Source: an uncultured Candidatus Saccharibacteria bacterium (lineage in GTDB: Bacteria; Patescibacteriota; Minisyncoccia; Phycocordibacterales; UBA2100). Taken from it: a DNA stretch of 64,000 bases. Shown here one piece after another: positions 521-33,805 of the stretch. How positions within the stretch are numbered: position 1 is the first letter of the stretch; every line of letters starts with the position of its first letter. The notes below the pieces were generated by a model. It saw only the letters and a program-made list of their open reading frames with translations, had not been told where the DNA came from and did no database searches. Location: contig CAZUVH010000002.1 of assembly GCA_964623775.1 (NCBI GenBank), positions 1,089 through 65,088 of the forward strand. The letters are read 5' to 3'. A program made the position numbers and the translations under genes.

Positions 521-1297
521 ATGAAGTGGCCGCTAATGTTATCAACCGTGCGACACGGTCAATCGGCGTACAATATTCTAAGGGGAATAAAGGAGAGAGA
601 TCCCCAGTACATCGCATTCAAGAAAGCGTATGCGAAGGACTATACGTCGGCAGACGCTCGCAACCTTGCAGCCTTGATGGCGGAAAAGTATGCGCTCAAA
701 ACGAGCGACTACGACACGCCTCTTTCCGAGGTCGGCTGGGAGCAAGCAGTCGCGACGGGAGAAAACATCACTACGTTTGAGCATTATACGCGTCCCGACA
801 TTGTACTGGTGTCACCGTATCGGCGTACGCTTGAGACTCTCGCAGGGATGCAGCAGGGCGGATTCGATACAGGCCCTGCAAAGATCGTGGTCGATGACCG
901 TATTCGCGAGCAAGAGCACGGGCTGTCGCTGCTCTACAGCGATTGGAGAATTTTCCATGTCTTTCATCCGGAGCAGAAAAAGCTACATGATCTAATGGGG
1001 CCATATTGGTACCAGTATCCCCAGGGTGAGAGTACCTCGCAGGTGCGCGAGCGGATACGTTCAGTCACCAACACGATCGTCCGCGAATATGCGGGTCTCA
1101 ATGTCTGGTTGATTACGCATCATCTGACAAAACTCTCAATCAGGGCCAACATGGAACGACTTTCGCCGGAAGAGTTCATGCGTCTTGATCGCGAGGAGAA
1201 GCCAATCAACTGTGGTGTGATGGTCTATCGCGGCAATCCGCGCAGAGGGTCGGAAGGGAAGCTGGAGCTCGCGTGTTACAACGCCAAATTCTATTGA
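521..1297 (+). CDS. histidine phosphatase family protein (phosphoglycerate mutase-like)
   Basis: N-terminal RHGQS motif (VRHGQSAYN) typical of the His-phosphatase superfamily; 258-aa ORF. Confidence 0.6.
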   Translation: MKWPLMLSTVRHGQSAYNILRGIKERDPQYIAFKKAYAKDYTSADARNLAALMAEKYALKTSDYDTPLSEVGWEQAVATGENITTFEHYTRPDIVLVSPYRRTLETLAGMQQGGFDTGPAKIVVDDRIREQEHGLSLLYSDWRIFHVFHPEQKKLHDLMGPYWYQYPQGESTSQVRERIRSVTNTIVREYAGLNVWLITHHLTKLSIRANMERLSPEEFMRLDREEKPINCGVMVYRGNPRRGSEGKLELACYNAKFY

Positions 1298-1303
1298 TTG
1301 CTG

Positions 1304-1340
1304 CAGGCTCGCACCATATCGTGCGAGCCTGTTTCTTTTC
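1304..1340 (+). terminator. rho-independent terminator after phosphatase gene
   Basis: caggctcgcac-catatc-gtgcgagcctg stem followed by tttcttttc. Confidence 0.6.
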
Positions 1341-1362
1341 AATGTGTATAATACTGCAGAGC

Positions 1363-1391
1363 TTGACAAGGATTATAGCGAGTCGCATAAT
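1363..1391 (+). promoter_or_regulatory. sigma70-like promoter (TTGACA-17-CATAAT)
   Basis: TTGACA at 1363-1368, 17-nt spacer, CATAAT at 1386-1391, about 40 nt upstream of the 1434 start. Confidence 0.5.
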
Positions 1392-1433
1392 GACACTAGT
1401 CTAAATCTCCTCTAGAAAGGGAAGGAGTGCGCA

Positions 1434-1829
1434 ATGAAACGTTTTATTATCGCGCTGGCACTGCTGCTCGCTGGATTGGAGGGCGCGGCAGCTCAGTCGC
1501 ACTTTAAGAAGGCGAATCTGCCGACTGGTGGGCATTACTACTATCCCACCGAGGCGTATTTTTCTGAGCTGAAAAGCACGAACTGCAAATTCGAGGAATT
1601 TTCACTCGAGCAAAGTTTGTGCATCTCTCACGTAGACGGCTCCAACGGTCTTCGACGCAGGTGGGAAGCGCTGGACTCGCTCGCGTATCAAATAAAGCTG
1701 AATCCGAGGGTGGCGACGCCCGAATATCTCAAAATGTTTCGAGATACACTTGAGCAACTCTGCATCGAGTCGGTAGAGTTCCCCGACATTCGAAAAAAGG
1801 CTGAGGACGACCGTAGCTTCGGAGGTTGA
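1434..1829 (+). CDS. secreted hypothetical protein
   Basis: N-terminal signal peptide MKRFIIALALLLAGLEGAAAQ; GGAAGGAG RBS upstream. Confidence 0.55.
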   Translation: MKRFIIALALLLAGLEGAAAQSHFKKANLPTGGHYYYPTEAYFSELKSTNCKFEEFSLEQSLCISHVDGSNGLRRRWEALDSLAYQIKLNPRVATPEYLKMFRDTLEQLCIESVEFPDIRKKAEDDRSFGG

Positions 1830-1900
1830 TCTTGTGGAAGCGCGCAGGTTTGCGCGCTTCTTCTTTTTGTAAAAGGCGCTGCATGATACACTCCATGTGT

Positions 1901-2323
1901 ATGAAAAAACGTGTAGCCACAGCAATAGCCGTCGCATTATTTGCAGGGCCGTTTGTGGCCGTGGCTGAATCGGCGGTGCAAAATAATTCGCAGATTACGA
2001 CGCTCTACGCACAGCTCATTGTGCTCCTGCAGAAAATCGCATCGCTCCAGAAGCAATCTGTCATTTCGGTCTCGCCCGATCACGGCGCAGCACCCCTCAC
2101 CGTCCAGTTTGCGATCAATAATCCGACGGGGACGGAGTCGATCATCTTTGGCGATGGCGGATACAGCGGTCAGACGTGCATAAAAAAGGCAAACGGCTGG
2201 TGTGATTTCTCAAAGCCGCTCGCTCACACATATGCGCTACCTGGTACGTACACGGTCAATGTCTACACTCACAACGGGGAAGCAAAGATCGTGAGCACGA
2301 GCACTGTCGTGGTCACCAAATAG
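1901..2323 (+). CDS. secreted PKD-domain protein
   Basis: Internal Met with signal peptide MKKRVATAIAVALFAGPFVAVA. PKD-like motifs PLTVQF...FGDGG...HTYALPGTYTV. Start taken at the ATG at 1901 rather than the ORF-track start. Confidence 0.55.
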   Translation: MKKRVATAIAVALFAGPFVAVAESAVQNNSQITTLYAQLIVLLQKIASLQKQSVISVSPDHGAAPLTVQFAINNPTGTESIIFGDGGYSGQTCIKKANGWCDFSKPLAHTYALPGTYTVNVYTHNGEAKIVSTSTVVVTK

Positions 2324-5424: not shown

Positions 5425-5946
5425 TCAGTTCAGTTGTCGTTTGTTCTTCGGCGGCGAAGGGGCATCTGGCATGTCCCCAAGATCTTCGTCCTGCTGTCGC
5501 TGAACGAAAGTCATCACTTGTTCGGTCATCTGCTTCTCGGTGTCATACATCGTGATACACCATCCTTTTCGGACGAGGGGCATCTGCGATTGCAGCTGTG
5601 TCCAGATATTGGGATGAGTCGTCTTTGCGACGCGCTCGGCGACGCCGATCCAGAAAATCTGAAGAAGCATGTCGAGCTCGATCTGGAGCTCGAATAATCT
5701 ATTCACATACTCATCCTGCTCAGGAGGAGGAAGTGACGGCGTATCCTTGAACGCCTTGTGAATCACATCGTGTCGCTTCTGGATAAGACAAAAGAATTTG
5801 CGCTCACGGGGCTCAAGCGTCCCAAATACCTCCTCGTACTTGGTCGGTGCCTCAAGTTTGTCATTTGCGGCCGGATCTTCCACGGTGGCGTCGATGTCAC
5901 CCTCGAGCGTCTTCAGCATTTCGAAGATCGTTTTTTTCTCGGTCAT
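5425..5946 (-). CDS. hypothetical protein
   Basis: 173-aa ORF, no recognisable motifs. Confidence 0.45.
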   Translation of the reverse strand: MTEKKTIFEMLKTLEGDIDATVEDPAANDKLEAPTKYEEVFGTLEPRERKFFCLIQKRHDVIHKAFKDTPSLPPPEQDEYVNRLFELQIELDMLLQIFWIGVAERVAKTTHPNIWTQLQSQMPLVRKGWCITMYDTEKQMTEQVMTFVQRQQDEDLGDMPDAPSPPKNKRQLN

Positions 5947-6053: not shown

Positions 6054-7028
6054 ATGAAAAGGAAAACACCAAGTGATTCACTTCGTTATCTTGAGCACGC
6101 ACCACGGTCCGAGACCATTTCAATCGTTCCTATCCCATTTGATTGGGGAGCGGATCATGGAGACGACCTGGCAAAGGGTCCGCGCTATTTTATCGACAAT
6201 GGTATTGAGACTGTCTTTGAGACGGCTGGTATCAAGACAAATCTTCTTCCGGAACTCCGCGTATCAAAAAGCGATCGTAAAAAATTCCACGCAAAAACGG
6301 GCGACATAATTACCGACCTTCAGAAAGTCCTTGTAGACATACGCGATGTCGTCTCGGGTGAAGTGGGACGTAAACGCCCGATCATCGCGCTTGGCGGCGA
6401 TCATACGATTGCCATGGGCACGATTGCGGGAGCCGCAGCTGCATTGAAGGGAAACCTCGGTGTGATCTGGGTAGACATTCATCCTGATGCACATACGTAC
6501 GACACGTCGATAACGAAAAATCCGCACGGCATGCCGACGATGGTCGTGATGGGCGAAGGTGAAAAGAGACTCACGAGCATCGTGACACATCCGATCAAGA
6601 AGAAAAATTTCCTCTACATCGGTACGCGTGACGCCGATCAAGGCGAAATCGATAACATGCGTAAACATAAAGTTGAAAACATTACGATGATGGATATTGC
6701 CGAACACGGCATAGGTATTGCGCTCCGAGGCGTGGAGCGGCTCAATAAGAAAGTAAAAAATGTATGGATAAGTATCGATCTCGACTCGATCGATCACCAG
6801 GTTGCACCGGGTACGACGATGGCTACGCCCGGAAGTTTTACACATCGCGAGATCGTGACGCTCATGACCGCGATAGGGAAAACATGCAATGTGGTCGGCA
6901 TTGACCTCGTCGAGATGACTCCGGGCCGCGACATTGATCGCAAGACCGTACTCATTGCGCTCGAGATCGCCGCGGCATGCTTCGGCGCGAAATACAGTTG
7001 GTATACGAGGTACATGGAAGCGTACTAG
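6054..7028 (+). CDS. arginase/agmatinase/formiminoglutamase family ureohydrolase
   Basis: Mn-binding motifs GGDHTI, DIHPDAHTYD and SIDLDSID in canonical order. Confidence 0.8.
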   Translation: MKRKTPSDSLRYLEHAPRSETISIVPIPFDWGADHGDDLAKGPRYFIDNGIETVFETAGIKTNLLPELRVSKSDRKKFHAKTGDIITDLQKVLVDIRDVVSGEVGRKRPIIALGGDHTIAMGTIAGAAAALKGNLGVIWVDIHPDAHTYDTSITKNPHGMPTMVVMGEGEKRLTSIVTHPIKKKNFLYIGTRDADQGEIDNMRKHKVENITMMDIAEHGIGIALRGVERLNKKVKNVWISIDLDSIDHQVAPGTTMATPGSFTHREIVTLMTAIGKTCNVVGIDLVEMTPGRDIDRKTVLIALEIAAACFGAKYSWYTRYMEAY

Positions 7029-13447: not shown

Positions 13448-14269
13448 ATGACCGAAGCCGGACCTGTAATCGATGAACATGCTGCCGAGGCACTTGCTAC
13501 GACCGCAGAATCTGCGGCGCATTCTGATGGCGGCATACACGTATCGATCGCCGCTGAAAAACTTGGTGAATTCATAGGTATTCCGATCACCAATGCACTC
13601 GTCACGAGCTGGATCGTCATCGGACTCCTTGTGGTATTTGCATTCCTCCTGCGCAGCAGACTCTCGCTCATACCGGGGAAATTGCAGGTACTTATCGAAG
13701 ACGCTTTTTCATTTGTATACGACTATGTCGCCGAGACGCTTGAGAGCGCGGACATGGCGCGCCGTTTTTTCCCGCTGCTCATGACCATCTTCCTTTTTAT
13801 ATTTGTGGGCAACATGCTCCACTTCATTCCGGGTGTCGGGTCGCTCACGTACGACGGTCATCCATTTTTGCGTGCCCCCAATACCGATCTCACCGTACCA
13901 CTCGTGCTCGCGATCATCTCTTTTTTCGTCATCGAATTCACCGGCATCTTCGCAATCGGCGTGTGGAAGTACGGACAGAAGTTTCTCGTCAATCCCTTCC
14001 GTGATCCGATCGGCGCCATGGTTGGATTCATCGAGATCATCGGCGAACTCGTACGCGTCGTTTCGCTCTCGTTCCGACTCTTCGGCAACATTCTCGCCGG
14101 CGAAATCATTATCGCCGTAGCGATCTTTTTCGCGCCGTATTTGGGCCCGGTACCGCTCATGATGTTTGAGGTATTCATCGGATTCCTCCAGGCTGCTATC
14201 TTCGCGCTCCTCACGCTCTTTTTCATCAAACTCGCTATCGCAGAGCCCCACGGCGCCGAAGCGCATTAA
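13448..14269 (+). CDS. atpB: F0F1 ATP synthase subunit a
   Basis: Multi-TM protein ending LFGNILAGEII...PLMMFEVFIGFLQAAIFALLTLFFIKLAIAEPHGAEAH with the conserved essential Arg region (SLSFRLFGN). Confidence 0.9.
   Translation: MTEAGPVIDEHAAEALATTAESAAHSDGGIHVSIAAEKLGEFIGIPITNALVTSWIVIGLLVVFAFLLRSRLSLIPGKLQVLIEDAFSFVYDYVAETLESADMARRFFPLLMTIFLFIFVGNMLHFIPGVGSLTYDGHPFLRAPNTDLTVPLVLAIISFFVIEFTGIFAIGVWKYGQKFLVNPFRDPIGAMVGFIEIIGELVRVVSLSFRLFGNILAGEIIIAVAIFFAPYLGPVPLMMFEVFIGFLQAAIFALLTLFFIKLAIAEPHGAEAH
14153..14269 (+). repeat. direct repeat copy 1 (native 3' end of atpB)
   Basis: 117 bp, about 96% identical to 14885..15001. Confidence 0.85.
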
Positions 14270-14282
14270 GTACATAAAGAAA

Positions 14283-14308
14283 AAGACTCCGCGATTCATC
14301 GCAGAGCC
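14283..14308 (-). terminator. intrinsic terminator for cassette gene 14318..14797
   Basis: ctctgcga-tgaa-tcgcggag hairpin with T-run on the minus strand. Confidence 0.45.
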
Positions 14309-14317
14309 TTTGAGGTA

Positions 14318-14797
14318 TCAATTATGCATTCCGGCTTTTTTTGAGGGGAACAGGCGTACGAACGTACCCCAAATAACAAAGAGCAATAAGGTTCCGAATA
14401 TGATCGTCGTGATAGTAAATCCGATACCCGTCATATCTCCCGCAAAAAACCTCATCCAGATGTTGATGACAGCAGCTCCCAGCCACGATATCGCAAAAGG
14501 TGCTGCCCAGGGTGCAATTTTCTCACGATCTTCTGTAAGTTGTGCTGAGGCTACACCTACGCCGGTCATATTGAAGTAAATGCCGAGACAAAAAGCAACG
14601 GCAATAATTCCCACGAGTCCCCAAAAGAGTGTGACAATGATCTGAATTGCAGCCGTTATGCCCATTGAAAGCGGCATAAAATGCGGATTCAAATTATAAT
14701 CGACCGGAGGAATCAATGGGTAGAAGCCGGTGATTATCCAGATGAGAAGAAGACACATGGCCAGACTCTTCAGAAAATTCGTTGCGAACATCGTCAT
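14318..14797 (-). CDS. integral membrane protein (hypothetical), cassette inserted between atpB and atpE
   Basis: 159 aa with four to five TM helices; GGAG RBS; candidate TTGCAA-17-TATACC promoter upstream on the minus strand. Confidence 0.55.
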   Translation of the reverse strand: MTMFATNFLKSLAMCLLLIWIITGFYPLIPPVDYNLNPHFMPLSMGITAAIQIIVTLFWGLVGIIAVAFCLGIYFNMTGVGVASAQLTEDREKIAPWAAPFAISWLGAAVINIWMRFFAGDMTGIGFTITTIIFGTLLLFVIWGTFVRLFPSKKAGMHN

Positions 14798-14884
14798 TCT
14801 CCAATCGGTGAAGGGTTATTTCCTATAAAAGGTATACGTGGCACGTGTTCGTTTTGCAAGGCACATGGATGTGCATTAAAAAAG

Positions 14885-15001
14885 CCGCTCATGATGTTTG
14901 AGGTATTCATCGGATTCCTCCAGGCTGCCATCTTCGCGCTCCTCACGCTTTTCTTCATCAAGCTCGCTATCGCAGAGCCCCACGGCGCCGAAGCGCACTA
15001 A
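14885..15001 (+). repeat. direct repeat copy 2: displaced duplicate of atpB 3' end (last ~38 codons plus stop), remnant
   Basis: Encodes MMFEVFIGFLQAAIFALLTLFFIKLAIAEPHGAEAH*, identical in protein to the atpB C-terminus. All five nt differences are synonymous. Confidence 0.85.
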
Positions 15002-15013
15002 TACAAAGGCCGC

Positions 15014-15704
<691 letters not shown>

Positions 15705-24067: not shown

Positions 24068-24094
24068 AACGAGCGGTCGAAACCGCTCGTTTAT
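24068..24094 (+). terminator. intrinsic terminator
   Basis: acgagcggt-cgaaa-accgctcgt hairpin followed by ttta-tctt. Confidence 0.5.
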
Positions 24095-24099
24095 CTTGT

Positions 24100-24175
24100 G
24101 AGGATAGCGAGAGAAGTGAAAGTTTACTTTCACTTCCGAGCGACGCAGCAAGTAAAGGTTTATCCTTTCAGAATG
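24100..24175 (+). ncRNA. repeated structured element, copy A (two hairpins with TTTA loops flanking conserved CCGAGCGACGCAG)
   Basis: gaggatagcgagagaagtgaaag-ttta-ctttcacttc-cgagcgacgcag-caagtaaagg-ttta-tcctttc; paralogous copy at 33731..33805 with compensatory stem changes. Confidence 0.45.
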
Positions 24176-24400: not shown

Positions 24401-25495
24401 ATGAAAATCGGAATCGTCGGCCTCCCAAATGTTGGGAAATCAACGCTTTTTAACGCCCTTACTCGTAAGGGTGTCCTTGTAGCTAATTATCCATTTGCGA
24501 CCATCGACCCATCGGTTGGCGTTGTGGCGGTACCGGATTTTCGGCTCGATCGGCTCTCTGAAATGTCTCAAACGAAAAAGCGAGTGCCTGCAATCGTGGA
24601 ATTCGTGGATATCGCCGGATTGGTAAAGGGCGCTTCGGAAGGAGAGGGTCTGGGCAATCAATTCTTGCAGCACATTCGCGAAGTCGATGCGATCGCGGAA
24701 GTTGTCCGCATCTTTGATGACGAGGACGTGCATCATGTCGCCGGCTCAATCGATCCTCGCTACGATATCGAAATTATTGACCTCGAATTGGTGCAAGCTG
24801 ATTTGCAGTCGGCAGAAAAACGCCTCGATCGCGTGACGCGTGATTCGCGCGGTGGCGATAAGGATGCGCTTGCCGAAAAGGAGGTTCTCGAAAAGATCAT
24901 CCAGCCGCTCCGACAAGGAAAGGCGGCACGTACCGCGAACCTTACTGATGAGGAAAAAGCTATCGCGAAAGGTTTCCACTTCTTGACCATGAAGCCGATT
25001 CTCTACATCCTCAACCGCAAAAGCGGTGTCGTGAATATAGATGCTGAGAATGGCCAACGATGGCATGATTTGAAAAGTTTTCTAGACCAGAGCGACGCCA
25101 AGTACGTGGTCGTTGATGCGGGTGTAGAGAATGAGCTTGGCGATGTGCACGCTGATGAAAAAGCTGATTTCCGCCGCGAGCTTGGTGTCGCAGATGACGG
25201 CCTCGATGCACTCATCAAGGCTGGTTATGAGCTCCTTGATCTCATTTCCTTTTTCACGACAGGCGTAGAGGAGACACGCGCGTGGACGATTCATCGCGGC
25301 GACAAAGCACCGGATGCGGGTGCCGCGATCCACACGGATTTCAAAGATAAATTCATCCGGGCCGATACGATTCATTGGGACAAGCTGCTTGAAGTCGGTT
25401 CCTGGTCAAAGGCGCGAGAGAAGGGGATGGTCCGCTCGGAGGGTAAAGAATACGTCGTCCAAGACGGCGACGTCATGGAGTTTAAACACAGTTAA
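24401..25495 (+). CDS. ychF: ribosome-binding ATPase YchF (Obg-family GTPase)
   Basis: MKIGIVGLPNVGKSTLFNALT G1 motif, 364 aa, TGS-like C-terminus. Confidence 0.95.
   Translation: MKIGIVGLPNVGKSTLFNALTRKGVLVANYPFATIDPSVGVVAVPDFRLDRLSEMSQTKKRVPAIVEFVDIAGLVKGASEGEGLGNQFLQHIREVDAIAEVVRIFDDEDVHHVAGSIDPRYDIEIIDLELVQADLQSAEKRLDRVTRDSRGGDKDALAEKEVLEKIIQPLRQGKAARTANLTDEEKAIAKGFHFLTMKPILYILNRKSGVVNIDAENGQRWHDLKSFLDQSDAKYVVVDAGVENELGDVHADEKADFRRELGVADDGLDALIKAGYELLDLISFFTTGVEETRAWTIHRGDKAPDAGAAIHTDFKDKFIRADTIHWDKLLEVGSWSKAREKGMVRSEGKEYVVQDGDVMEFKHS
25405..25495 (+). repeat. direct repeat copy 1 (native 3' end of ychF)
   Basis: About 83-90 bp repeated at 25957..26045. Confidence 0.85.
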
Positions 25496-25502
25496 AAAAA
25501 CA

Positions 25503-25531
25503 GAGGCCTCCGTATGTATATACGGAGGCCA
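25503..25531. terminator. bidirectional intrinsic terminator shared by ychF and cassette gene
   Basis: gaggcctccgta-tgtata-tacggaggcc perfect hairpin flanked by A7 / T-rich runs. Confidence 0.65.
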
Positions 25532-25536
25532 TGGTG

Positions 25537-25881
25537 TTATTGGATCGGCACATGCTTGCCGTCGTCGATTCGCCAGGCTTTGTAGTGCCCATCGGCGTTG
25601 AGATCGTCGGCGTCAATGTAAATCGTCACGGACTCGAAATCATGGGCAACATACTTAGACGCTTTTTCTACCTTCTGATCTCGTCTTGCTAGAGCCATCT
25701 CCAGCGTGGCATGACGCTCGGGATCGATATGCCCACCCTTCCAAAGTAGGACTCGGTGGGCTGTCATGGTGCCCTTGGCAAACTCGATCATGCTGTTGAG
25801 CTGTTGCCCCCAGAATGTGTCTGCGATGTAGCTGCCATCAAGCTTCGTAACGACGAAGTATCGAGAATCAAGATCAAACAT
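25537..25881 (-). CDS. hypothetical soluble protein, cassette inserted after ychF
   Basis: 114-aa ORF; own promoter (TTGACT-16-TAAAAT on the minus strand) and terminator. Confidence 0.55.
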   Translation of the reverse strand: MFDLDSRYFVVTKLDGSYIADTFWGQQLNSMIEFAKGTMTAHRVLLWKGGHIDPERHATLEMALARRDQKVEKASKYVAHDFESVTIYIDADDLNADGHYKAWRIDDGKHVPIQ

Positions 25882-25914
25882 GCAGAGACCCTTTCGATGA
25901 GAAACTCTTTATGT

Positions 25915-25942
25915 ATTTTAGCACAAACATTCAATAAGTCAA
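25915..25942 (-). promoter_or_regulatory. sigma70-like promoter for cassette gene (TTGACT-16-TAAAAT)
   Basis: Reverse strand reads ttgact-tattgaatgtttgtgc-taaaat about 35 nt upstream of the ATG. Confidence 0.5.
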
Positions 25943-25956
25943 TTCATCGTCGTTGA

Positions 25957-26045
25957 CAAAAAAGCGAGAGAAGGGGATGGTCCGCTCGGAGGGTAAAGAA
26001 TACGTCGTCCAAGACGGCGATGTCATGGAGTTTAAGCATTCGTAG
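25957..26045 (+). repeat. direct repeat copy 2: displaced duplicate of ychF 3' end (last ~27 codons plus stop), remnant
   Basis: Encodes ...EKGMVRSEGKEYVVQDGDVMEFKHS*, identical in protein to the YchF C-terminus. Differences GAC/GAT, AAA/AAG, CAC/CAT, AGT/TCG, TAA/TAG are all synonymous. Confidence 0.85.
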
Positions 26046-26088: not shown

Positions 26089-26757
26089 ATGCCCCGATCT
26101 GCGGATTATTGGATCAAGGAATATAGTAAACGCGATGCTCTGTGGATTCATGATGGAAATCCGAAGCGTCCTCACGCACTCCTTACCTCGGGGAACCACT
26201 CCAACGGCTTCTTCAATAGTAGACCGGTGATTTCCGACACCCATTTACTTACAGAGGCAGCCTTCTGTCTACTCGACCATTTCTATCAGCAGGCCAGTGG
26301 AAACGTGATCATCAATGCTGTCGTGGGTCCTCAGACAGGGGCTACAAAATTGGCCGAATTGATTTGCGACTTACTTGTGCTGGGGACGCGCTATGATTGC
26401 GTCCACGTTTCTCCCGCAAAATCCGAAGTAGACGGCAAGAAAGTAATGGTCTTCAGTGATACGGAAGAAATTGCTATGCGCGGTAGGGCTGCAATCCTTT
26501 GCGAAGATGTGCTGACGACGGGTGGCAGTGTGGATCTCACTGCAGCGGCGGTCGAAAAGGCGGGCGGCACCGTTTTGCCGTACGTGCTCGTGCTTGTGAA
26601 TCGATCAGGTCTCACCGAGGTCAACGGCAAAAAAATCGTTGCACTGATTGATCGAGCGATGCCCATCTGGGAGCCGCATGAGTGTCCGCTCTGCAAGCAG
26701 GGCTCGGAGGCGCTGCGCCCCAAAGACAATTGGGCGCGACTGAACGCAGATTATTAA
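26089..26757 (+). CDS. phosphoribosyltransferase-domain protein (orotate PRTase-like)
   Basis: PRPP-binding motif AILCEDVLTTGGSV. Confidence 0.6.
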   Translation: MPRSADYWIKEYSKRDALWIHDGNPKRPHALLTSGNHSNGFFNSRPVISDTHLLTEAAFCLLDHFYQQASGNVIINAVVGPQTGATKLAELICDLLVLGTRYDCVHVSPAKSEVDGKKVMVFSDTEEIAMRGRAAILCEDVLTTGGSVDLTAAAVEKAGGTVLPYVLVLVNRSGLTEVNGKKIVALIDRAMPIWEPHECPLCKQGSEALRPKDNWARLNADY

Positions 26758-26759
26758 AG

Positions 26760-26790
26760 TAAAGCGGCCCGAAATGGGCCGCTTTGTTTT
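26760..26790 (+). terminator. intrinsic terminator
   Basis: aagcggccc-gaaat-gggccgctt followed by tgttttta-tttt. Confidence 0.6.
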
Positions 26791-27203
26791 TATTTTCGCT
26801 CAAATTTTTGCATAAGGTCGCGCACAACGCCCCTATCTCTCTCAAGCTGATCGAGTTTGAGACGCTGTTCTTGAGACCACTGCACAAGATCCCTCCATGT
26901 CTTGCTGTCGACAAAGCCAATAGTTCCATTAGGACAGCCGTAACTGACCTCGTTGGAGCGATAGTCTACCAAGACTCGTCCACCATCTTCACCAATAGCT
27001 GTTAGCTCCGCGTGGCCCTCAGTGACACAGGTGTCACCATATTTCAGATTTTTGATGCCACCGGGGTTTCGCACAGCGATTGATATATTTGGCCTCGATG
27101 TGAGCTTTGTTCCTGGTGTGGCCACTCCCTGTTGCGAGTTCACCCCGTCTGTCACAAGGAATAAAAACAGGACGACTAGCAAGCCCAGCAAATATCTTTC
27201 CAT
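26790..27203 (-). CDS. secreted hypothetical protein
   Basis: Start assumed at the MERYLLGLLVVLFLFLVTDG signal peptide; the ORF extends to 27275. Confidence 0.45.
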   Translation of the reverse strand: MERYLLGLLVVLFLFLVTDGVNSQQGVATPGTKLTSRPNISIAVRNPGGIKNLKYGDTCVTEGHAELTAIGEDGGRVLVDYRSNEVSYGCPNGTIGFVDSKTWRDLVQWSQEQRLKLDQLERDRGVVRDLMQKFERK

Positions 27204-27307
27204 CGTAAAACCTCCGTGGATCCTGCTCTCAAGTGTATAGAAGCGGCGTATATACGCAAATGTCGCCAAAGACAAAAAGAGGACGCCCAGCGGGCGTCCT
27301 TTGATCT

Positions 27308-27841
27308 TTAGTCGTCGTCTTTCTCAATAGCAAGGCCCAGGCGCTTGTATGCATGTGCGCGAAGTTCTTTGTTCTGATCGTAGCCTTTGTAATCCGAGTG
27401 AGCACCGCGCATATTCGCCGGCAAATCTTTCATGCGATGAATGAATGCATCGGAAGCATACGGATGCTGGACGAGTAAAATATCGAGATACCACAGACCC
27501 TTTTGCTCAAGGTCGTGGATCACCCTCGCCGGAGTCTCGATATTGCTCGCGAGCGCTTGCCATACAGGCCACACCATCCCCTGGTCCTCAAACATATATT
27601 CGCGCGCAATTCGCTGAAGCGTCCTCGGGGTAGCCCGGGGCGATCTTGCGTCTACTGTGCGCAGGGCGGCAAGCATTGCGGCCCGCTTTTCAACGAGTGC
27701 CGCGCCCTTATGTCTCGGGTATTTCCAACCGTTTTCACCAGTAATCACTGTCATCGAGGCCTCCGTGTCTCGCATGGTTGTATCAAATTCTGAGGGAATA
27801 ACCAACCTGTCTTGAAGGGGCCAATATGTTATCCTATACAC
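27308..27841 (-). CDS. hypothetical protein
   Basis: 177-aa ORF; no motifs recognised. Confidence 0.4.
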   Translation of the reverse strand: MYRITYWPLQDRLVIPSEFDTTMRDTEASMTVITGENGWKYPRHKGAALVEKRAAMLAALRTVDARSPRATPRTLQRIAREYMFEDQGMVWPVWQALASNIETPARVIHDLEQKGLWYLDILLVQHPYASDAFIHRMKDLPANMRGAHSDYKGYDQNKELRAHAYKRLGLAIEKDDD

Positions 27842-28801
27842 ATGGACAAACCAAAAATAACACCCAAGGATTTCTTCCTCTGGGCGATGGCAATGATAGC
27901 CCTTTATTCAAGTATTTTCGCCCTTATCACGCTTCTCTTTGGATATATAGATTACGCGTTTCCCGATGCGCTCAATAGCTATATCGATCCCTACAGTAGC
28001 GGCATGCGCTACCAGATCGCGACGCTCCTCGTGATGTTCCCGCTCTTCCTCGTGGTCATGCGCTTTATCCGCAAGGACATCGTGCGCGATCCGACACGAA
28101 GCGATATCTGGATTCGTCGCTGGGCACTCTACCTCACCGTCTTCCTCGCTGGACTCACGATGGTCATCGATCTTATTGTGCTCGTTAATTCATTTCTTGG
28201 CGGGGAGATAACGACACGATTCGTCCTTAAAGTGCTCGTAGTCCTCGGCATCGCTGGGGTCGCATTTATGCACTTCCTTGCAGATATCTGGGGGTATTGG
28301 AGCCAATATCCTTCCCGTGCCCGCTCGGTAGGATGGGGAGTGGGCGCACTCGTACTGGTCGCTATCGGGGCAGGATTCTTCATCATGGGCTCTCCTTCGC
28401 AGATTCGTCTCTATCGCTTTGACGACACCAAGGTCTCTGACCTCCAAAATATCCAATGGCAAGTCGTTAATTATTGGCAGCAGAAGCAATCGCTCCCGAC
28501 GACTCTTGGCGATATCCAGGATCCGATCAGTGGGTATGTGATCCCGAAAGATCCGCAGACCGGAGAAATGTACAAATACGAGGCGACCGGTCCGATGACA
28601 TTCAAGCTCTGCGCGACGTTTAACGCAGAGACTCAGCTGAATTCGATGAATAACAACATGTATGCACGACCGATCGGGATCGAAGGGAAAGATCCGATGG
28701 GCGAGACGTGGCAGCATGGCGTAGGGGAGACCTGTTTCGAGCGCACAATCGATCCCGAGCGCTATCCTCCGTACAACAAGCAGCCCGCAAAAGTCATCTA
28801 A
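27842..28801 (+). CDS. integral membrane protein with C-terminal soluble domain (hypothetical)
   Basis: Start taken at the MDKPKITP Met; five to six TM helices followed by a soluble region. Confidence 0.5.
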   Translation: MDKPKITPKDFFLWAMAMIALYSSIFALITLLFGYIDYAFPDALNSYIDPYSSGMRYQIATLLVMFPLFLVVMRFIRKDIVRDPTRSDIWIRRWALYLTVFLAGLTMVIDLIVLVNSFLGGEITTRFVLKVLVVLGIAGVAFMHFLADIWGYWSQYPSRARSVGWGVGALVLVAIGAGFFIMGSPSQIRLYRFDDTKVSDLQNIQWQVVNYWQQKQSLPTTLGDIQDPISGYVIPKDPQTGEMYKYEATGPMTFKLCATFNAETQLNSMNNNMYARPIGIEGKDPMGETWQHGVGETCFERTIDPERYPPYNKQPAKVI

Positions 28802-28834: not shown

Positions 28835-29104
28835 TCACAGTAGCCACAAACTATTGTAGCCATCGATTTGCCATCGTTGCCACCCGAGGACAATCCACTG
28901 CACAGTGTTAATCCCCATAAAAAAGGCACTCCAATACTGCTCAAGGGCAGCATCAGCCACCACCATAAGTATCATCCCAATTGTGACACCGACGGATGTG
29001 AGGAGCGCGGGCTTTGAATCACTGCGGTGAACTGTCGGGATCATTGTGATGATGAAAATAATATTTGCGACCATCATCGCGGCATCTTGCCAGGTGATCT
29101 CCAT
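28835..29104 (-). CDS. small three-TM membrane protein (hypothetical)
   Basis: 89 aa, three hydrophobic helices. Confidence 0.4.
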   Translation of the reverse strand: MEITWQDAAMMVANIIFIITMIPTVHRSDSKPALLTSVGVTIGMILMVVADAALEQYWSAFFMGINTVQWIVLGWQRWQIDGYNSLWLL

Positions 29105-29170
29105 TATCGAGGCCTCCTTTTACTGAAGAAAATAGTATCACCACTGAGGCTGATATGGTACCTTATTTCA

Positions 29171-32100
29171 ATGGAGGGTTACGATCATAAAAAGATAGAA
29201 AAGAAGAGGCGGGATGCGTGGAGGAAGTCTGATCTCTACAAAGCTGCAGATTCTGTGAAAGGGAAGGACAACTTCTTCCTTCTGACAGAATTTCCGTATC
29301 CATCGGGCAATCTCCACGTCGGTCACTGGTACGCCTTTGCGCTCCCCGACATCCTCGCGCGCTACATGCGCATGAAGGGCAAAAATGTCCTTTTCCCAAT
29401 GGGATTCGACGCTTTTGGTCTGCCCGCAGAAAATGCCGCGATCAAAAATAAATTGAATCCGCGCAGATGGACCGAAAAAAACATCGAGTACATGAAGCAG
29501 CAGATCGCATCGATGGGTGCATCGTTCGACTGGTCGCGAGAAGTGCAGACGATCGACCCGGCGTACTACAAATGGACGCAGTGGCAATTCCTCCAATTTT
29601 TCAAAAAGGGTTTGGTGTATCAGAAGGACACGGCTGTCAATTGGTGCCCCAAAGACAAGACAGTGCTCGCCAACGAGCAGGTGGTGGATGGTAAATGCGA
29701 ACGCTGCGATAGTGTCGTCGAGCAGAAGCTGATGCTCCAATGGAATATCAAAATCACCGAGTACGCCGATCGTCTGATCGATGATCTCGAGCCACTCGAT
29801 TGGCCGCAGGAGATTAAAGAGTCGCAAAAAAATTGGATCGGAAGAAGCGAGGGTGCAGAGATTGACTTCCCGCTTGTACTAGACGCCGATAAGAAAAAGT
29901 ACACGTACTTGTATTTACATGGGTACAAAAGCCAGGCGGACCGGCCGCGAAGCCATTGGTATCGCGCGGGGCTTGAAGCCCTCGGCCACACGGTTGTGAT
30001 TCCTCAGCTACCTGGCACCGAACACCCCATTGAGAGCGAACAAGTGGAGACAGCGCTCAGTGCGACCGAATGGAATGAGAATACTATTGTTGTAGGACAC
30101 AGTCTCGGAGCGATCGTGGCGATGAAGGCACTCCTCAAGTCAGGTAAAAAGATCGGCGGGCTAATATTGGTGGCCCCGGCATTAGACCCGGAATCGGCTG
30201 CGAAAGCACCGAGAACTGGCTTGAATAAGGAATTTAAAAAACCATTTCACGAGACTTTCGATTGGAATATTGATTACGAGAAAATAAAAACCCTCACTGA
30301 TCGTCGCGTCATACTCTCTGATCTTAAAGAGGATCATCGCGTGGAGTATCTGAGAGAACTTTCTAAGAAGATTGACGGTCAGCTCGTGGAGACTACTGCC
30401 GTAGAAGAGCATTTTACAGGGGATACGGAGCCCGACGTACTTATGTGGCTTCGACCAACCGCGCGGGTTTTCACCACACGCCCGGATACGCTCTTTGGCG
30501 CAACGTATCTCGTGCTGTCGCCCGAGCATCTCTGGGTGCAGCTCGCGCTCAAGCATAGGACGGTGCTCAAGAATAACGATGCTGTGCAGAAGTATGTCGA
30601 TGATGCAAAGAGGAAATCAGACATGGATCGTCAGACGAGTAAGGAGAAAACAGGGGTACAACTCGAGGGTGTGTACGCGATCAATCCAGCAAATGGCGAG
30701 AAGATCCCCCTGTATGTCGCGGATTATGTGCTCGCTACCTACGGCACGGGTGCGATCATGGCAGTGCCTGCCCACGACGAGCGCGACTACGAATTTGCGC
30801 AGAAATTCAATATTCCTATCACGCGTGTCGTTGACCCGGTGCTTACACAAACATCCGGCTCGTCTGCATTTAAAGAGGGGGAAGAATACCAAGACAGCGA
30901 TGGTGTTATCGCGGTTGTAAAGCATTGGGCTGAAGATAAGTATCTCGGCCTCAAGTGGAAGGGCACGGACTGGGTAACGCTTCTCACGGGCGGTATCGAC
31001 GACGGATACACCGCGGAACAAACTGTGCTCAAGGAAATTTCGGAAGAGACTGGCTACAAGAATGCAAAAGTAGCGCGGCAGCTCGCGACAATCCACAGCA
31101 AGTATTTTCATGTGCCGAAAGACAAAAACCGTTTCGGACATGCGCCGACGTTCTATGTGCAACTTACCGATGGCGAGCGTGAGGAAATTTCCGCCGAAGA
31201 GGAATCGAAGCACGAGCTTGTTTGGCTTACGCCAGCCGAGATGGCCTCGGCTCTTACGGCTGTGTCACACAGGGAAGCGCTCTCGATACTCAAAACCGGT
31301 GTCTATACCGGTGCGGGGATGCTCACTAATTCGGGGGAATTCGACGGCATGATGTCTGGTGAGGCCAAGGCAAAAATAACCGAGAAATTTGGAAGAAAAA
31401 AAACGACTTATAAACTGCGCGATTGGATTGTCTCGCGCCAGCGCTACTGGGGTGTGCCGATTCCGATCATCCACTGCGAGAAATGCGGTCCGGTAGCAGT
31501 GCCCGACAAGGACTTGCCGGTGAAATTGCCCGACGTCGAAGATTATCTCCCGACGGGCGACGGTAAATCGCCGCTCGCCAAGGTTGAATCTTTTGTGAAC
31601 GTTGAGTGTCCCAACTGTAAGAAGCCTGCGAAAAGGGAAACAGACACGCTCGATACGTTTGTCGATTCATCGTGGTATTTCCTGCGTTACACCGATCCGA
31701 AAAATAAAAAGGAGTTTGCCGATCGCGAAAGCCAGGATCATTGGATGCCTATAGATCTCTATTCTGGCGGCGCTGAGCACACCACCATGCACCTCCTCTA
31801 CAGTCGCTTCTGGCACAAAGCGCTCTACGATCTCGGACTCGTAAAAGATCCCGAGCCGTACAAAAAACGCATGAACAGGAGCCTCATCATGGGCCCCGAT
31901 GGTCAGAAAATGAGTAAATCGCGCGGCAATGTAATCGATCCTGACGAGGTCGTCGATCGACTCGGCGCCGATACGGTACGCATGTATCTCGCGTTTATCG
32001 GTCCGTACAATGAAGTATCCAACTATCCGTGGAATCCCGATGGCGTCGTGGGCGTGCGCCGATTCCTTGAGCGCATATTCCGACTGCAAGAAATCGTGCA

Positions 32101-32575
32101 AAAAGACGACGTGCCAGAGCTCAATGCCGCGCTTCACCGAACAATCAAAAAGGTGGGGGATGATATAGAGGTGCTGAAATTCAATACCGCAATCAGCTCT
32201 CTTATGATATTCCTCAACAAAGTCGAAAAGAAAAAATCGATCGGCGAGCGTCAGTGGGCGTTCCTTTTGAAGTTGCTCGAACCTTTTGCGCCATTCATTG
32301 CCGACGAGCTGTGGAGCCGATCCGGTCACAAGAGCGATCTTCTTGAGGAAGAGTGGCCGCAGTACGACGAAGGACAAATGCGCGAGCAAACAATCACGAT
32401 CGCGGTGCAGGTCAATGGCAAGACTCGCGCGCAGATCCAGGTACCCTCCGACGCCGATAAGGCGGCAGTGGAAACGCAGGCAAAAGAAGCCATAGCGACC
32501 CGCATCCTCGGCAAAAAGATCGAGAAGACCATTGTCGTCCCGAACCGTCTCGTCAATTTCGTCGTTGAGGCCTAG
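29171..32575 (+). CDS. leuS: leucyl-tRNA synthetase carrying two inserted hydrolase domains (alpha/beta serine hydrolase and Nudix)
   Basis: PYPSGNLHVGH (HIGH), TTRPDTLFGATY (CP1 editing domain), KMSKSRGN (KMSKS), C-terminal tRNA-binding domain. About 1134 aa versus ~800-860 for typical LeuRS. Confidence 0.9.
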   Translation: MEGYDHKKIEKKRRDAWRKSDLYKAADSVKGKDNFFLLTEFPYPSGNLHVGHWYAFALPDILARYMRMKGKNVLFPMGFDAFGLPAENAAIKNKLNPRRWTEKNIEYMKQQIASMGASFDWSREVQTIDPAYYKWTQWQFLQFFKKGLVYQKDTAVNWCPKDKTVLANEQVVDGKCERCDSVVEQKLMLQWNIKITEYADRLIDDLEPLDWPQEIKESQKNWIGRSEGAEIDFPLVLDADKKKYTYLYLHGYKSQADRPRSHWYRAGLEALGHTVVIPQLPGTEHPIESEQVETALSATEWNENTIVVGHSLGAIVAMKALLKSGKKIGGLILVAPALDPESAAKAPRTGLNKEFKKPFHETFDWNIDYEKIKTLTDRRVILSDLKEDHRVEYLRELSKKIDGQLVETTAVEEHFTGDTEPDVLMWLRPTARVFTTRPDTLFGATYLVLSPEHLWVQLALKHRTVLKNNDAVQKYVDDAKRKSDMDRQTSKEKTGVQLEGVYAINPANGEKIPLYVADYVLATYGTGAIMAVPAHDERDYEFAQKFNIPITRVVDPVLTQTSGSSAFKEGEEYQDSDGVIAVVKHWAEDKYLGLKWKGTDWVTLLTGGIDDGYTAEQTVLKEISEETGYKNAKVARQLATIHSKYFHVPKDKNRFGHAPTFYVQLTDGEREEISAEEESKHELVWLTPAEMASALTAVSHREALSILKTGVYTGAGMLTNSGEFDGMMSGEAKAKITEKFGRKKTTYKLRDWIVSRQRYWGVPIPIIHCEKCGPVAVPDKDLPVKLPDVEDYLPTGDGKSPLAKVESFVNVECPNCKKPAKRETDTLDTFVDSSWYFLRYTDPKNKKEFADRESQDHWMPIDLYSGGAEHTTMHLLYSRFWHKALYDLGLVKDPEPYKKRMNRSLIMGPDGQKMSKSRGNVIDPDEVVDRLGADTVRMYLAFIGPYNEVSNYPWNPDGVVGVRRFLERIFRLQEIVQKDDVPELNAALHRTIKKVGDDIEVLKFNTAISSLMIFLNKVEKKKSIGERQWAFLLKLLEPFAPFIADELWSRSGHKSDLLEEEWPQYDEGQMREQTITIAVQVNGKTRAQIQVPSDADKAAVETQAKEAIATRILGKKIEKTIVVPNRLVNFVVEA

Positions 32576-33712: not shown

Positions 33713-33730
33713 GCTTACCGTTTTTCTAAC

Positions 33731-33805
33731 GAGGATAGTGAGGGAAATGAATACGTGTTTTCATTTCCGAGCGACGCAGTCAGCAAGAGGTTTACCTCTT
33801 GAATA
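33731..33805 (+). ncRNA. repeated structured element, copy B
   Basis: gaggatagtgagggaaatgaa-tacgtgtt-ttcatttcc-gagcgacgcagt-cagcaagagg-ttta-cctcttg; shares conserved linker and hairpin architecture with copy A. Confidence 0.45.

Follow-up and report, generated by a model that had tools for sequence, protein, structure and literature searches.

Duplicated 3' ends of ychF and atpB enclose single-gene convergent cassettes in a Candidatus Saccharibacteria genome, probably by recombination within the gene tails

We analysed a stretch of 64,000 nt (hereafter the window) from contig CAZUVH010000002.1 of an uncultured Candidatus Saccharibacteria bacterium, a member of the Patescibacteria, in which the 3' end of ychF occurs twice around a small convergent gene cassette and in which atpB, the gene for ATP synthase subunit a, shows the same layout. 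Genomes of Patescibacteria are tiny, with few classical mobile elements and a large share of orphan genes, and how these bacteria acquire genes is poorly understood. The features of the ychF locus are listed below, where ORF stands for open reading frame, aa for amino acids, att for attachment site and PRT for phosphoribosyltransferase.

24401..25495, plus strand: ychF, 364 aa, intact, the target gene (Pfam YchF-GTPase_C 2.5e-33, MMR_HSR1 2.7e-23)
25414..25495, plus strand: tail copy A, the functional ychF end, attL-like, its final 25 nt differing from copy B (repeat comparison)
25505..25530, no strand assigned: hairpin terminator, 11 bp with 7 G-C pairs (terminator scan)
25537..25881, minus strand: ORF114, the cargo, 114 aa, soluble, orphan, with host-like codon usage (ORF call, searches)
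25942..25915, minus strand: ORF114 promoter, TTGACT-16-(TG)TAAAAT (10/12 matches, TG extension)
25964..26045, plus strand: tail copy B, displaced non-coding relic of a ychF end, attR-like (repeat comparison)
26089..26757, plus strand: PRT-like gene, in the older variable DNA of the ychF hotspot (26089..27754) (Pfam)
26790..27203, minus strand: orphan ORF, in the same older variable DNA (as called in Logan contigs)
27308..27754, minus strand: second orphan ORF, in the same older variable DNA (as called in Logan contigs)
27842..28801, plus strand: DUF5671 gene, ancestral downstream neighbour of ychF (synteny with relatives)

The window YchF is 77% identical to its best match among 185,579 species representatives. 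A first-pass annotation of this DNA had reported that the ychF 3' end is duplicated around a convergent cassette, with the second copy at about 25957..26045. Our comparison confirms the duplication and defines it as a direct repeat of 82 nt with a spacing of 550 (25414..25495 vs 25964..26045), and the 14 nt upstream of the repeat match between the copies at only 8 positions. The leading 57 nt are identical, while the last 25 nt contain 7 differences in 5 codons including the stop, located at 25471, 25486, 25489-25492 and 25495. Every one of them is silent, and the changed codons are GAC/GAT, AAA/AAG, CAC/CAT, AGT/TCG (the final Ser) and TAA/TAG, exactly as had been noted. The minus-strand ORF of 114 aa and its promoter at 25915..25942 are also present between the copies, and the ORF has a ribosome-binding site, AAGGG, 8 nt ahead of its ATG as read from the sequence. 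What had been called a perfect bidirectional terminator stands only in part: the hairpin exists, but it is scored as an intrinsic terminator on the minus strand only, where it has a T-run, and the plus strand shows no clean T-run. This hairpin terminates ORF114 and probably also ends the ychF transcript. The whole cassette is 0.55 kb in size and contains one orphan gene.

The corresponding features between atpB and atpE are as follows.

13448..14269, plus strand: atpB, intact, the second target gene (Pfam)
14153..14269, plus strand: atpB tail copy A (repeat comparison)
14311..14282, minus strand: intrinsic terminator of ORF159 (terminator scan)
14318..14797, minus strand: ORF159, the cargo, 159 aa, orphan, with 4-5 predicted transmembrane segments (ORF call, prediction)
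14885..15001, plus strand: atpB tail copy B, a relic (repeat comparison)
15005..15029, plus strand: terminator belonging to atpB copy B (terminator scan)
15014..15388, minus strand: ORF124, a second convergent small membrane ORF between atpB and atpE (relatives lack it)
15402..15704, plus strand: atpE, ancestral downstream neighbour of atpB (synteny with relatives)

The atpB locus is a real sister of the ychF locus, as the first-pass annotation had proposed. Its repeat is 117 nt long (14153..14269 vs 14885..15001) with 5 silent differences, all at third positions, and contains a perfect identity block of 44 nt, compared with 57 nt at ychF. The cassette is 0.73 kb in size and again carries one orphan gene, and ORF124 is probably an older insert without a scar. 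A repeat search across the window detected no third gene-tail duplication beyond ychF and atpB. When the two kinds of tail were compared by eye for a common core, only the hexamer CCGCTC was found, and a rough count gives about two hexamers in common by chance. At 14270..15401, two convergent membrane ORFs on the minus strand, accompanied by terminators on either strand, split the ATP synthase operon, and therefore atpE and the genes downstream need a new promoter. The atpB-atpE intergenic sequence that is conserved in relatives (…catgctagaatgccggcatac…) is not recognisable in the window.

Comparison with relatives shows that both cassettes are derived insertions, because ychF normally abuts the DUF5671 gene and atpB normally abuts atpE. 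In the relatives, ychF and atpB are single copy each and the neighbour gene is directly adjacent. Of 39 relatives that keep DUF5671, about 15 have a gap of 0-80 bp behind ychF and the others one of 0.2-1.7 kb, and the gap reaches 2.3 kb in the window, where it contains the ORF114 cassette, tail copy B, the PRT-like gene and the two orphan minus-strand ORFs; no homologues of this content were found beside ychF in relatives. Likewise, atpE follows atpB after 67-70 nt in three relatives with 80-83% AtpB identity, compared with 1,132 nt in the window. In the relative with the most similar AtpB (86% identical), another convergent gene occupies this slot. That relative is represented by P0006 on a 2,752-nt contig of Joint Genome Institute sample 3300078620, in which the opposite-strand gene, of at least 262 aa, overlaps the atpB end by 4 nt. 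In four relatives (L002, L007, L014 and L018), a terminator and a single unrelated convergent ORF come straight after ychF, which is a plausible donor-like arrangement. The scarred cassette is the one nearest to the target gene at both loci. This position, together with the plus-strand terminator that atpB copy B has kept as its own, fits serial insertion in which the newest unit enters proximally.

These comparisons also bear on an origin by local duplication without foreign DNA, that is, a long target-site duplication or a tandem ychF paralog that lost its 5' part. The single ychF and single atpB of the relatives, each with the neighbour adjacent, speak against such an origin, and the partly deleted tandem paralog in relatives, which the first-pass annotation had named as the scenario opposed to its own, is not seen. 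When 7 random substitutions were placed in the ychF tail, all were silent in 3 of 400,000 trials, and 5 random substitutions in the atpB tail were all silent with P = 5e-4. Under a model in which the copies are identical at birth and decay neutrally, about 35% of fixed differences are silent, and 10 of 10 silent codons over the two genes has P ~3e-5. As a benchmark, we measured prophage e14 in icd of E. coli, where 165 nt are duplicated with 12 nt differences in 11 changed codons, 9 silent and 2 Asp-to-Glu. The silent-only divergence in the window matches this signature, and both tail pairs therefore descend from two functional genes each, in agreement with the earlier claim that the copies diverged within functional genes of different lineages. 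Final-Ser codons of both the AGY and the TCN type occur in real ychF genes of relatives. The same 10 of 10 silent codons, the AGT/TCG switch among them, argue against a local duplication, which we consider very improbable.

The distribution of the differences is informative about the joint. All 5 changed ychF codons lie within the last 9 of 27 (clustering P = 0.0016) and the end block is 28% diverged; the 57-nt identical block and the clustered changes fit a joint at about 25470. The overall tail divergence between the copies is 4-9%, and since it is only that large and the codon usage of the cargo is host-like, the donor would have been closely related. As to which copy is native, a codon-usage test gave log2 likelihood ratios of -1.5 and +0.4 from too few sites, and copy A agrees with relatives at only 2-4 more of the 82 positions than copy B, the relatives being too distant to polarise the change.

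We also considered whether the repeat could be an assembly ambiguity, in which an uninterrupted chromosome, with a ychF of B-type end followed by the PRT gene, and a small circle or strain variant carrying the cassette were threaded together through the 57-nt core. At both loci, Logan unitigs (k=31) from three sequencing runs end precisely 30 nt inside the shared cores, whichever side they come from, with L081 starting at window position 25991, L084 ending at 25443 and L087 starting at 14968; therefore, both tail versions and both left-hand contexts are present in all three runs. These unitigs break at the 57-nt core, linkage across the core is beyond their reach, and the k=31 graph of a circle plus an empty site would be identical to that of the integrated form. 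However, ordinary reads are longer than the core, as are the large k-mers with which metagenome-assembled genomes are assembled, and a 550-bp replicon is implausible. The same architecture is also seen at atpB on the contig and, in assemblies made independently by other studies, in L037, L045, L029 and L131. Moreover, the cassette would still bear a ychF tail as an excised form, leaving the biology unchanged. An ambiguity of this kind is therefore very unlikely.

The cargo genes have no recognisable family. No homologues of ORF114 or ORF159 were found in 5.8 billion proteins, apart from one short repeat-motif match (P0002), and ORF114 remained an orphan in an exhaustive search of 1.8 billion cluster representatives. 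Neither protein has Pfam, PADLOC or PHROG matches, and a single-sequence AlphaFold model of ORF114 has a pLDDT (predicted local distance difference test) of 55 and is unreliable. Both genes have host-like codon usage and each has a promoter, a ribosome-binding site and a terminator, and because of these host-like codons and complete expression signals we treat them as real genes from a compositionally similar source. The GC content of the cassettes is not distinct from that of the flanks. The two proteins are unrelated to each other, consistent with the first-pass statement that the common feature is the mode of integration and not the cargo.

To examine recurrence, we compared the own tail of ychF with the downstream DNA at 200 ychF loci (80 genomes and 120 metagenome contigs, the latter from one metagenome scan in which the closest locus was about 80% identical in nucleotide sequence). 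Clear extra tail copies were found in 4 of about 200 loci, L037, L045, L029 and L131, with z = 9-33 against shuffles, and about five further loci were marginal. The YchF proteins of these four genomes are 47-62% identical to that of the window and the events are independent. The ychF scar thus recurs with other cargo, and relatives show empty sites, in line with the recurrent mechanism proposed in the first pass. L037 contains three extra tail copies separated by gene-less spacers of about 90-210 bp, and L029 a 32-nt tail copy 110 nt downstream. In L131 (YchF 47% identical), the cargo consists of Phd/ParE and MNT/HEPN toxin-antitoxin pairs. In L045, a 614-aa ABC transporter lies between the copies and the repeat extends 14 nt beyond the stop, while the distal copy is decaying with a frameshift and non-silent changes; this locus alone is compatible with the local duplication discussed above.

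Two further observations were made at these loci. Just past tail copy B of L131 (6912..7488, raw coordinates), there is a third toxin-antitoxin-like pair consisting of a ParE-like toxin (Pfam 3.7e-5) and an upstream small ORF; because this pair is distal to the relic tail, the ychF 3' flank there is a layered islet rich in toxin-antitoxin genes. Beside the tail array of L037, a palindromic element of about 63 nt is repeated 700 nt apart (5635..5697 and 6328..6390) and may be a repetitive extragenic palindromic (REP)-like or miniature inverted-repeat transposable element (MITE)-like repeat. Hammerhead-like motifs in an L037 spacer were dismissed, as Rfam gave only spurious sub-threshold matches to microRNA models, two of these matches being the repeated palindrome.

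The target is not arbitrary. As a control, the same tail test was applied to all ORFs of at least 150 aa in 1.5 Mb (about 1,280 other ORFs, the counts including some shadow ORFs), and it matched only ychF, the window atpB and one tandem paralog that was discarded. The discarded case, L146, only appeared to be a tail match at another gene; it is a complete tandem paralog and looks quite different, which also speaks against a paralog origin of the window repeats. The bias, 4 of about 200 ychF loci vs 1 of about 1,280 other ORFs, is significant (Fisher P = 0.0015). Over 153 genes, no other 45-nt stretch of ychF is as conserved in nucleotide sequence as the targeted codons, RSEGKEYVVQDGDVM. Duplicated-tail lengths range from 26 to 117 nt across events. 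The content of the ychF/DUF5671 slot is unrelated between genomes, with 87 Pfam families among 104 representative downstream ORFs, and a search for duplicated ychF 5' heads upstream of the gene gave none that was convincing.

Based on these observations, we suggest that the cassettes very probably entered by reciprocal or one-sided recombination inside the gene tail with an end supplied by the donor. Starting from the demonstrated anatomy, the two-lineage copies, the derived state, the recurrence with its target bias and the lack of a linked recombinase, we infer a donor arrangement, a circular or one-sided intermediate and an enzyme as follows. The donor would be a related lineage in which a compact unit of replacement ychF end, terminator, convergent ORF114 and promoter already lay directly downstream of ychF. 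This unit would have recombined into the recipient ychF through its highly conserved last ~80 nt, with one joint in the tail at about 25470, at the end of the identical block, and the other at 25963/25964. The recipient gene would remain intact, now with donor-derived final codons, and its own former end would persist 550 nt downstream as the non-coding relic. The newcomer would sit proximal to ychF and would have pushed the older inserts, the PRT-like gene and the two orphan ORFs, distally, and the atpB cassette would have arisen by the same process. In our view, the joints were most likely made by host homologous recombination after DNA uptake, either by single crossover of a circularised or recircularised fragment or by a one-sided homologous anchor with a second joint nearby.

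Whether tail-anchored recombination of this kind needed no dedicated recombinase appears to us evenly balanced. Several points favour the homology route. No part of the gene is better conserved than the target, the donors are close, the two targets have no common core, repeat length differs between events (26 to 117 nt), and the 57-nt identical block with its diverged end is the pattern expected from joints at about 25470 and 25963/25964. When recircularised DNA with part of a gene end integrated by single crossover in E. coli, 56 of 60 clones had end duplications of 109-950 bp (PMC3240628). Competence genes have been reported to be prevalent in Patescibacteria (PMC12455944), and a relaxase homologue occurs in only 103 Patescibacteria genomes, conjugative potential being rare (PMC12102498).

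The main alternative, in our judgement less likely, is that the joints were made by site-specific integration. The tails would be attL and attR of a small element, either moved in trans by a tyrosine (or serine) recombinase or left over by deletion from a larger element with an integrase, and the cassettes would then resemble solo cis-mobilizable elements (CIMEs). The signature is identical to that of e14 in icd, and the perfect 57- and 44-nt identity blocks resemble att cores. In streptococci, CIMEs (1.2-13 kb, with cargo) and gene-less microCIMEs (130-220 bp) have been described at rpmG, rpsI, fda and rplL, where they occupy the 3' ends and the units that have decayed most lie farthest from the target (PMC7563491), and the three gene-less spacers of L037 resemble the latter. 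The two toxin-antitoxin pairs of L131 are typical of mobile elements, the repeats are short with clustered left boundaries, and tycheposon arrays also show serial proximal insertion. On the other hand, two targets without a common core in one genome would require two specificities, the duplication length varies over the range given above, and compact promoter-ORF-terminator units without pseudogene debris are odd for deletion remnants.

The search for an enzyme bears directly on this alternative. Pfam analysis of 40 window ORFs revealed no recombinase, which leaves both cassettes and the 64 kb without one. When tyrosine- and serine-recombinase profiles were run on 4,249 ORFs of at least 100 aa from the window and the 200 loci (ychF flanks of 4-10 kb), there was none in the window and none downstream of any ychF, whereas at the streptococcal sites integrase-bearing elements are about as frequent as CIMEs (PMC7563491). 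The profiles replaced a first screen by single-seed phmmer with lambda Int, P2 Int and XerD, which was too insensitive, giving the genuine integrase of L079 E = 0.02. Similarly, the 104 representative downstream ORFs gave 87 Pfam families, and no recombinase was among the 25 families listed; no viral contig showed the ychF-tail pattern in a search for attP. The cassettes contain no transposase and their ends no inverted repeats.

Here, we need to consider several points that weigh against a homology-driven entry. The footprint is indistinguishable from an integrase junction such as that of e14 in icd, and the duplicated tails are near or below the length that RecA uses efficiently. In four events their left ends fall between about -33 and -43 nt, and in two between about -55 and -59 nt, and this clustering hints at fixed crossover sites. 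The recombinase profiles were home-made and could miss divergent enzymes, and the search covered 64 kb of the 235-kb contig, so a trans-acting integrase elsewhere in the genome is possible. Neither a donor nor a strain with an empty site nor a circular form was found, and the nearest relatives are about 80% identical in nucleotide sequence; exact-protein look-ups for a strain-level empty site or donor returned only the same strain in three Logan runs. Transfer of the cargo between genomes is likewise deduced indirectly, both genes being orphans.

Some neighbouring features of ychF deserve mention in their own right. In three independent Paceibacterota loci, large serine recombinases of 543-577 aa (Resolvase, Recombinase and Zn_ribbon_recom domains) abut the 5' end of ychF, all on the plus strand directly upstream of the gene (L006 2320..4053; L079 2407..4038; L118 2..826). 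Their 3' ends overlap the ychF start, and the enzymes of L006 and L079 are 50% identical. In addition, L079 carries a tyrosine integrase (898..2025), and a small resolvase is present in L006 (1514..2086). These loci point to an element family whose target is the ychF 5' end; no duplicated ychF head was detected within their 4-kb flanks. In the window, a 79-nt element occurs twice (24088..24166 and 33719..33797, 72% identical), once between a flavodoxin gene and ychF and once after a GDSL-lipase gene. Its predicted hairpin keeps 3 pairs through changes on both sides and has no Rfam match, an Rfam search of the whole window giving no hits, and the element could be a small structured RNA or a terminator-like repeat. 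Farther downstream (29027..32575, plus strand), two domains are apparently inserted into a leucyl-tRNA synthetase of 1,182 aa: aa 295-414 form an alpha/beta-hydrolase (Ser_hydrolase/Abhydrolase) and aa 630-749 a NUDIX domain. The Logan copies of the gene give the same domain hits.

The scars record the entry route of individual genes: inside the end of a conserved core gene, from a related donor, with the end rebuilt. At atpB, the insert puts two convergent genes and their terminators inside the ATP synthase operon. If the process is recombinase-free, it would offer competent bacteria a simple, general means of adding genes beside conserved anchors, and gene-tail duplicates would be a signature that can be mined in all genomes for dating and mapping recent gains. 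If it depends on a trans-acting integrase, ychF and atpB would be new attachment sites and the CIME concept would reach a phylum for which we found no description in the literature searched. We tentatively propose, as a possibility on the speculative side, that the best-conserved 3' ends of core genes such as ychF and atpB serve as portable homology arms in ultra-small bacteria that are competent and poor in integrases. Single-gene promoter-ORF-terminator cassettes attached to such tails would move from lineage to lineage, enter by host recombination with no dedicated recombinase, stack with the newest nearest the gene and perhaps be excisable through their repeats, and this might explain much of the turnover of orphan genes beside core genes in Patescibacteria.

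The architecture itself is already known as gene 3'-end integration with restoration of the gene, and CIMEs and slots of minimal mobile elements (MMEs) have also been described; the link to this classical footprint, as in prophage e14 and CIMEs, is missing from the first-pass annotation. In e14 and phage 21, as in the window, the element brings a replacement 3' end, the host gene stays intact and the old end is left as a downstream pseudogene (icdC). However, e14 is 15 kb long with its own intE and xisE, while the window cassettes are 0.55 and 0.73 kb with no recombinase nearby. Of the properties of integrase-encoding elements, direct repeats of the target 3' end with a functional proximal copy are seen here, and an element-encoded recombinase beside the att site is not. 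Insertion-duplication mutagenesis by single crossover is a routine laboratory technique. Campbell-type single crossovers likewise place the insert between two copies of a homologous segment without a dedicated recombinase (PMC3240628). The copies are donor/recipient hybrids, and the mosaic of identical block and diverged end at ychF agrees with this. Such crossovers are known from plasmid constructs under selection and not from natural chromosomal gene gain, and the natural repeats described here are shorter.

The CIMEs and microCIMEs of streptococci share with the window att-flanked, recombinase-less inserts at the 3' ends of conserved genes, without transfer genes (PMC7563491). They form tandem arrays with the oldest unit distal, and their gene-less units of 130-220 bp are like the L037 spacers (PMC7563491). 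Unlike the window cassettes, they are decay products of integrative and conjugative or integrative and mobilizable elements at the same site and are mobilised by accretion, and no integrase-bearing partner was seen in about 200 ychF loci. Tycheposon arrays in Prochlorococcus islands resemble L037 and the window in repeated integration at one site, older elements lying outward and scattered partial copies of the target, but they use tRNA genes as targets and carry tyrosine recombinases (bioRxiv 10.1101/2020.12.28.424599).

The MMEs of Neisseria, according to the account given in PMC1797815, are alternative small cassettes of up to 3 genes in the same syntenic slot without transposase or integrase, and the same account ascribes their spread to transformation and homologous recombination (Saunders & Snyder 2002, as cited there). 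The slots seen here are comparable: between ychF and DUF5671 there are 0 to 2.3 kb of DNA whose content is unrelated, and between atpB and atpE three relatives have no insert, a fourth has a different one and the window has two. The newest inserts are bounded by duplicated tails, which the double crossover assumed for MMEs would not create. To our knowledge, the MME concept involves no flanking duplications. Phage morons are autonomous promoter-ORF-terminator units between two genes of a conserved block; they are defined in phage genomes, and we know of no association with duplicated gene ends. Two further classes were rejected. A transposon or insertion sequence with a target-site duplication (2-15 bp, identical at birth) does not match repeats of 82 and 117 nt with silent-only divergence, no inverted repeats and no transposase, and an integron cassette does not match a window without tyrosine recombinase, in which the repeats are direct coding gene tails and not attC hairpins. 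The present case differs in its phylum, in its targets (ychF in very distant lineages, and atpB within the ATP synthase operon), in its minimal cassettes of a single orphan gene and in the apparent lack of an integrase-bearing partner.

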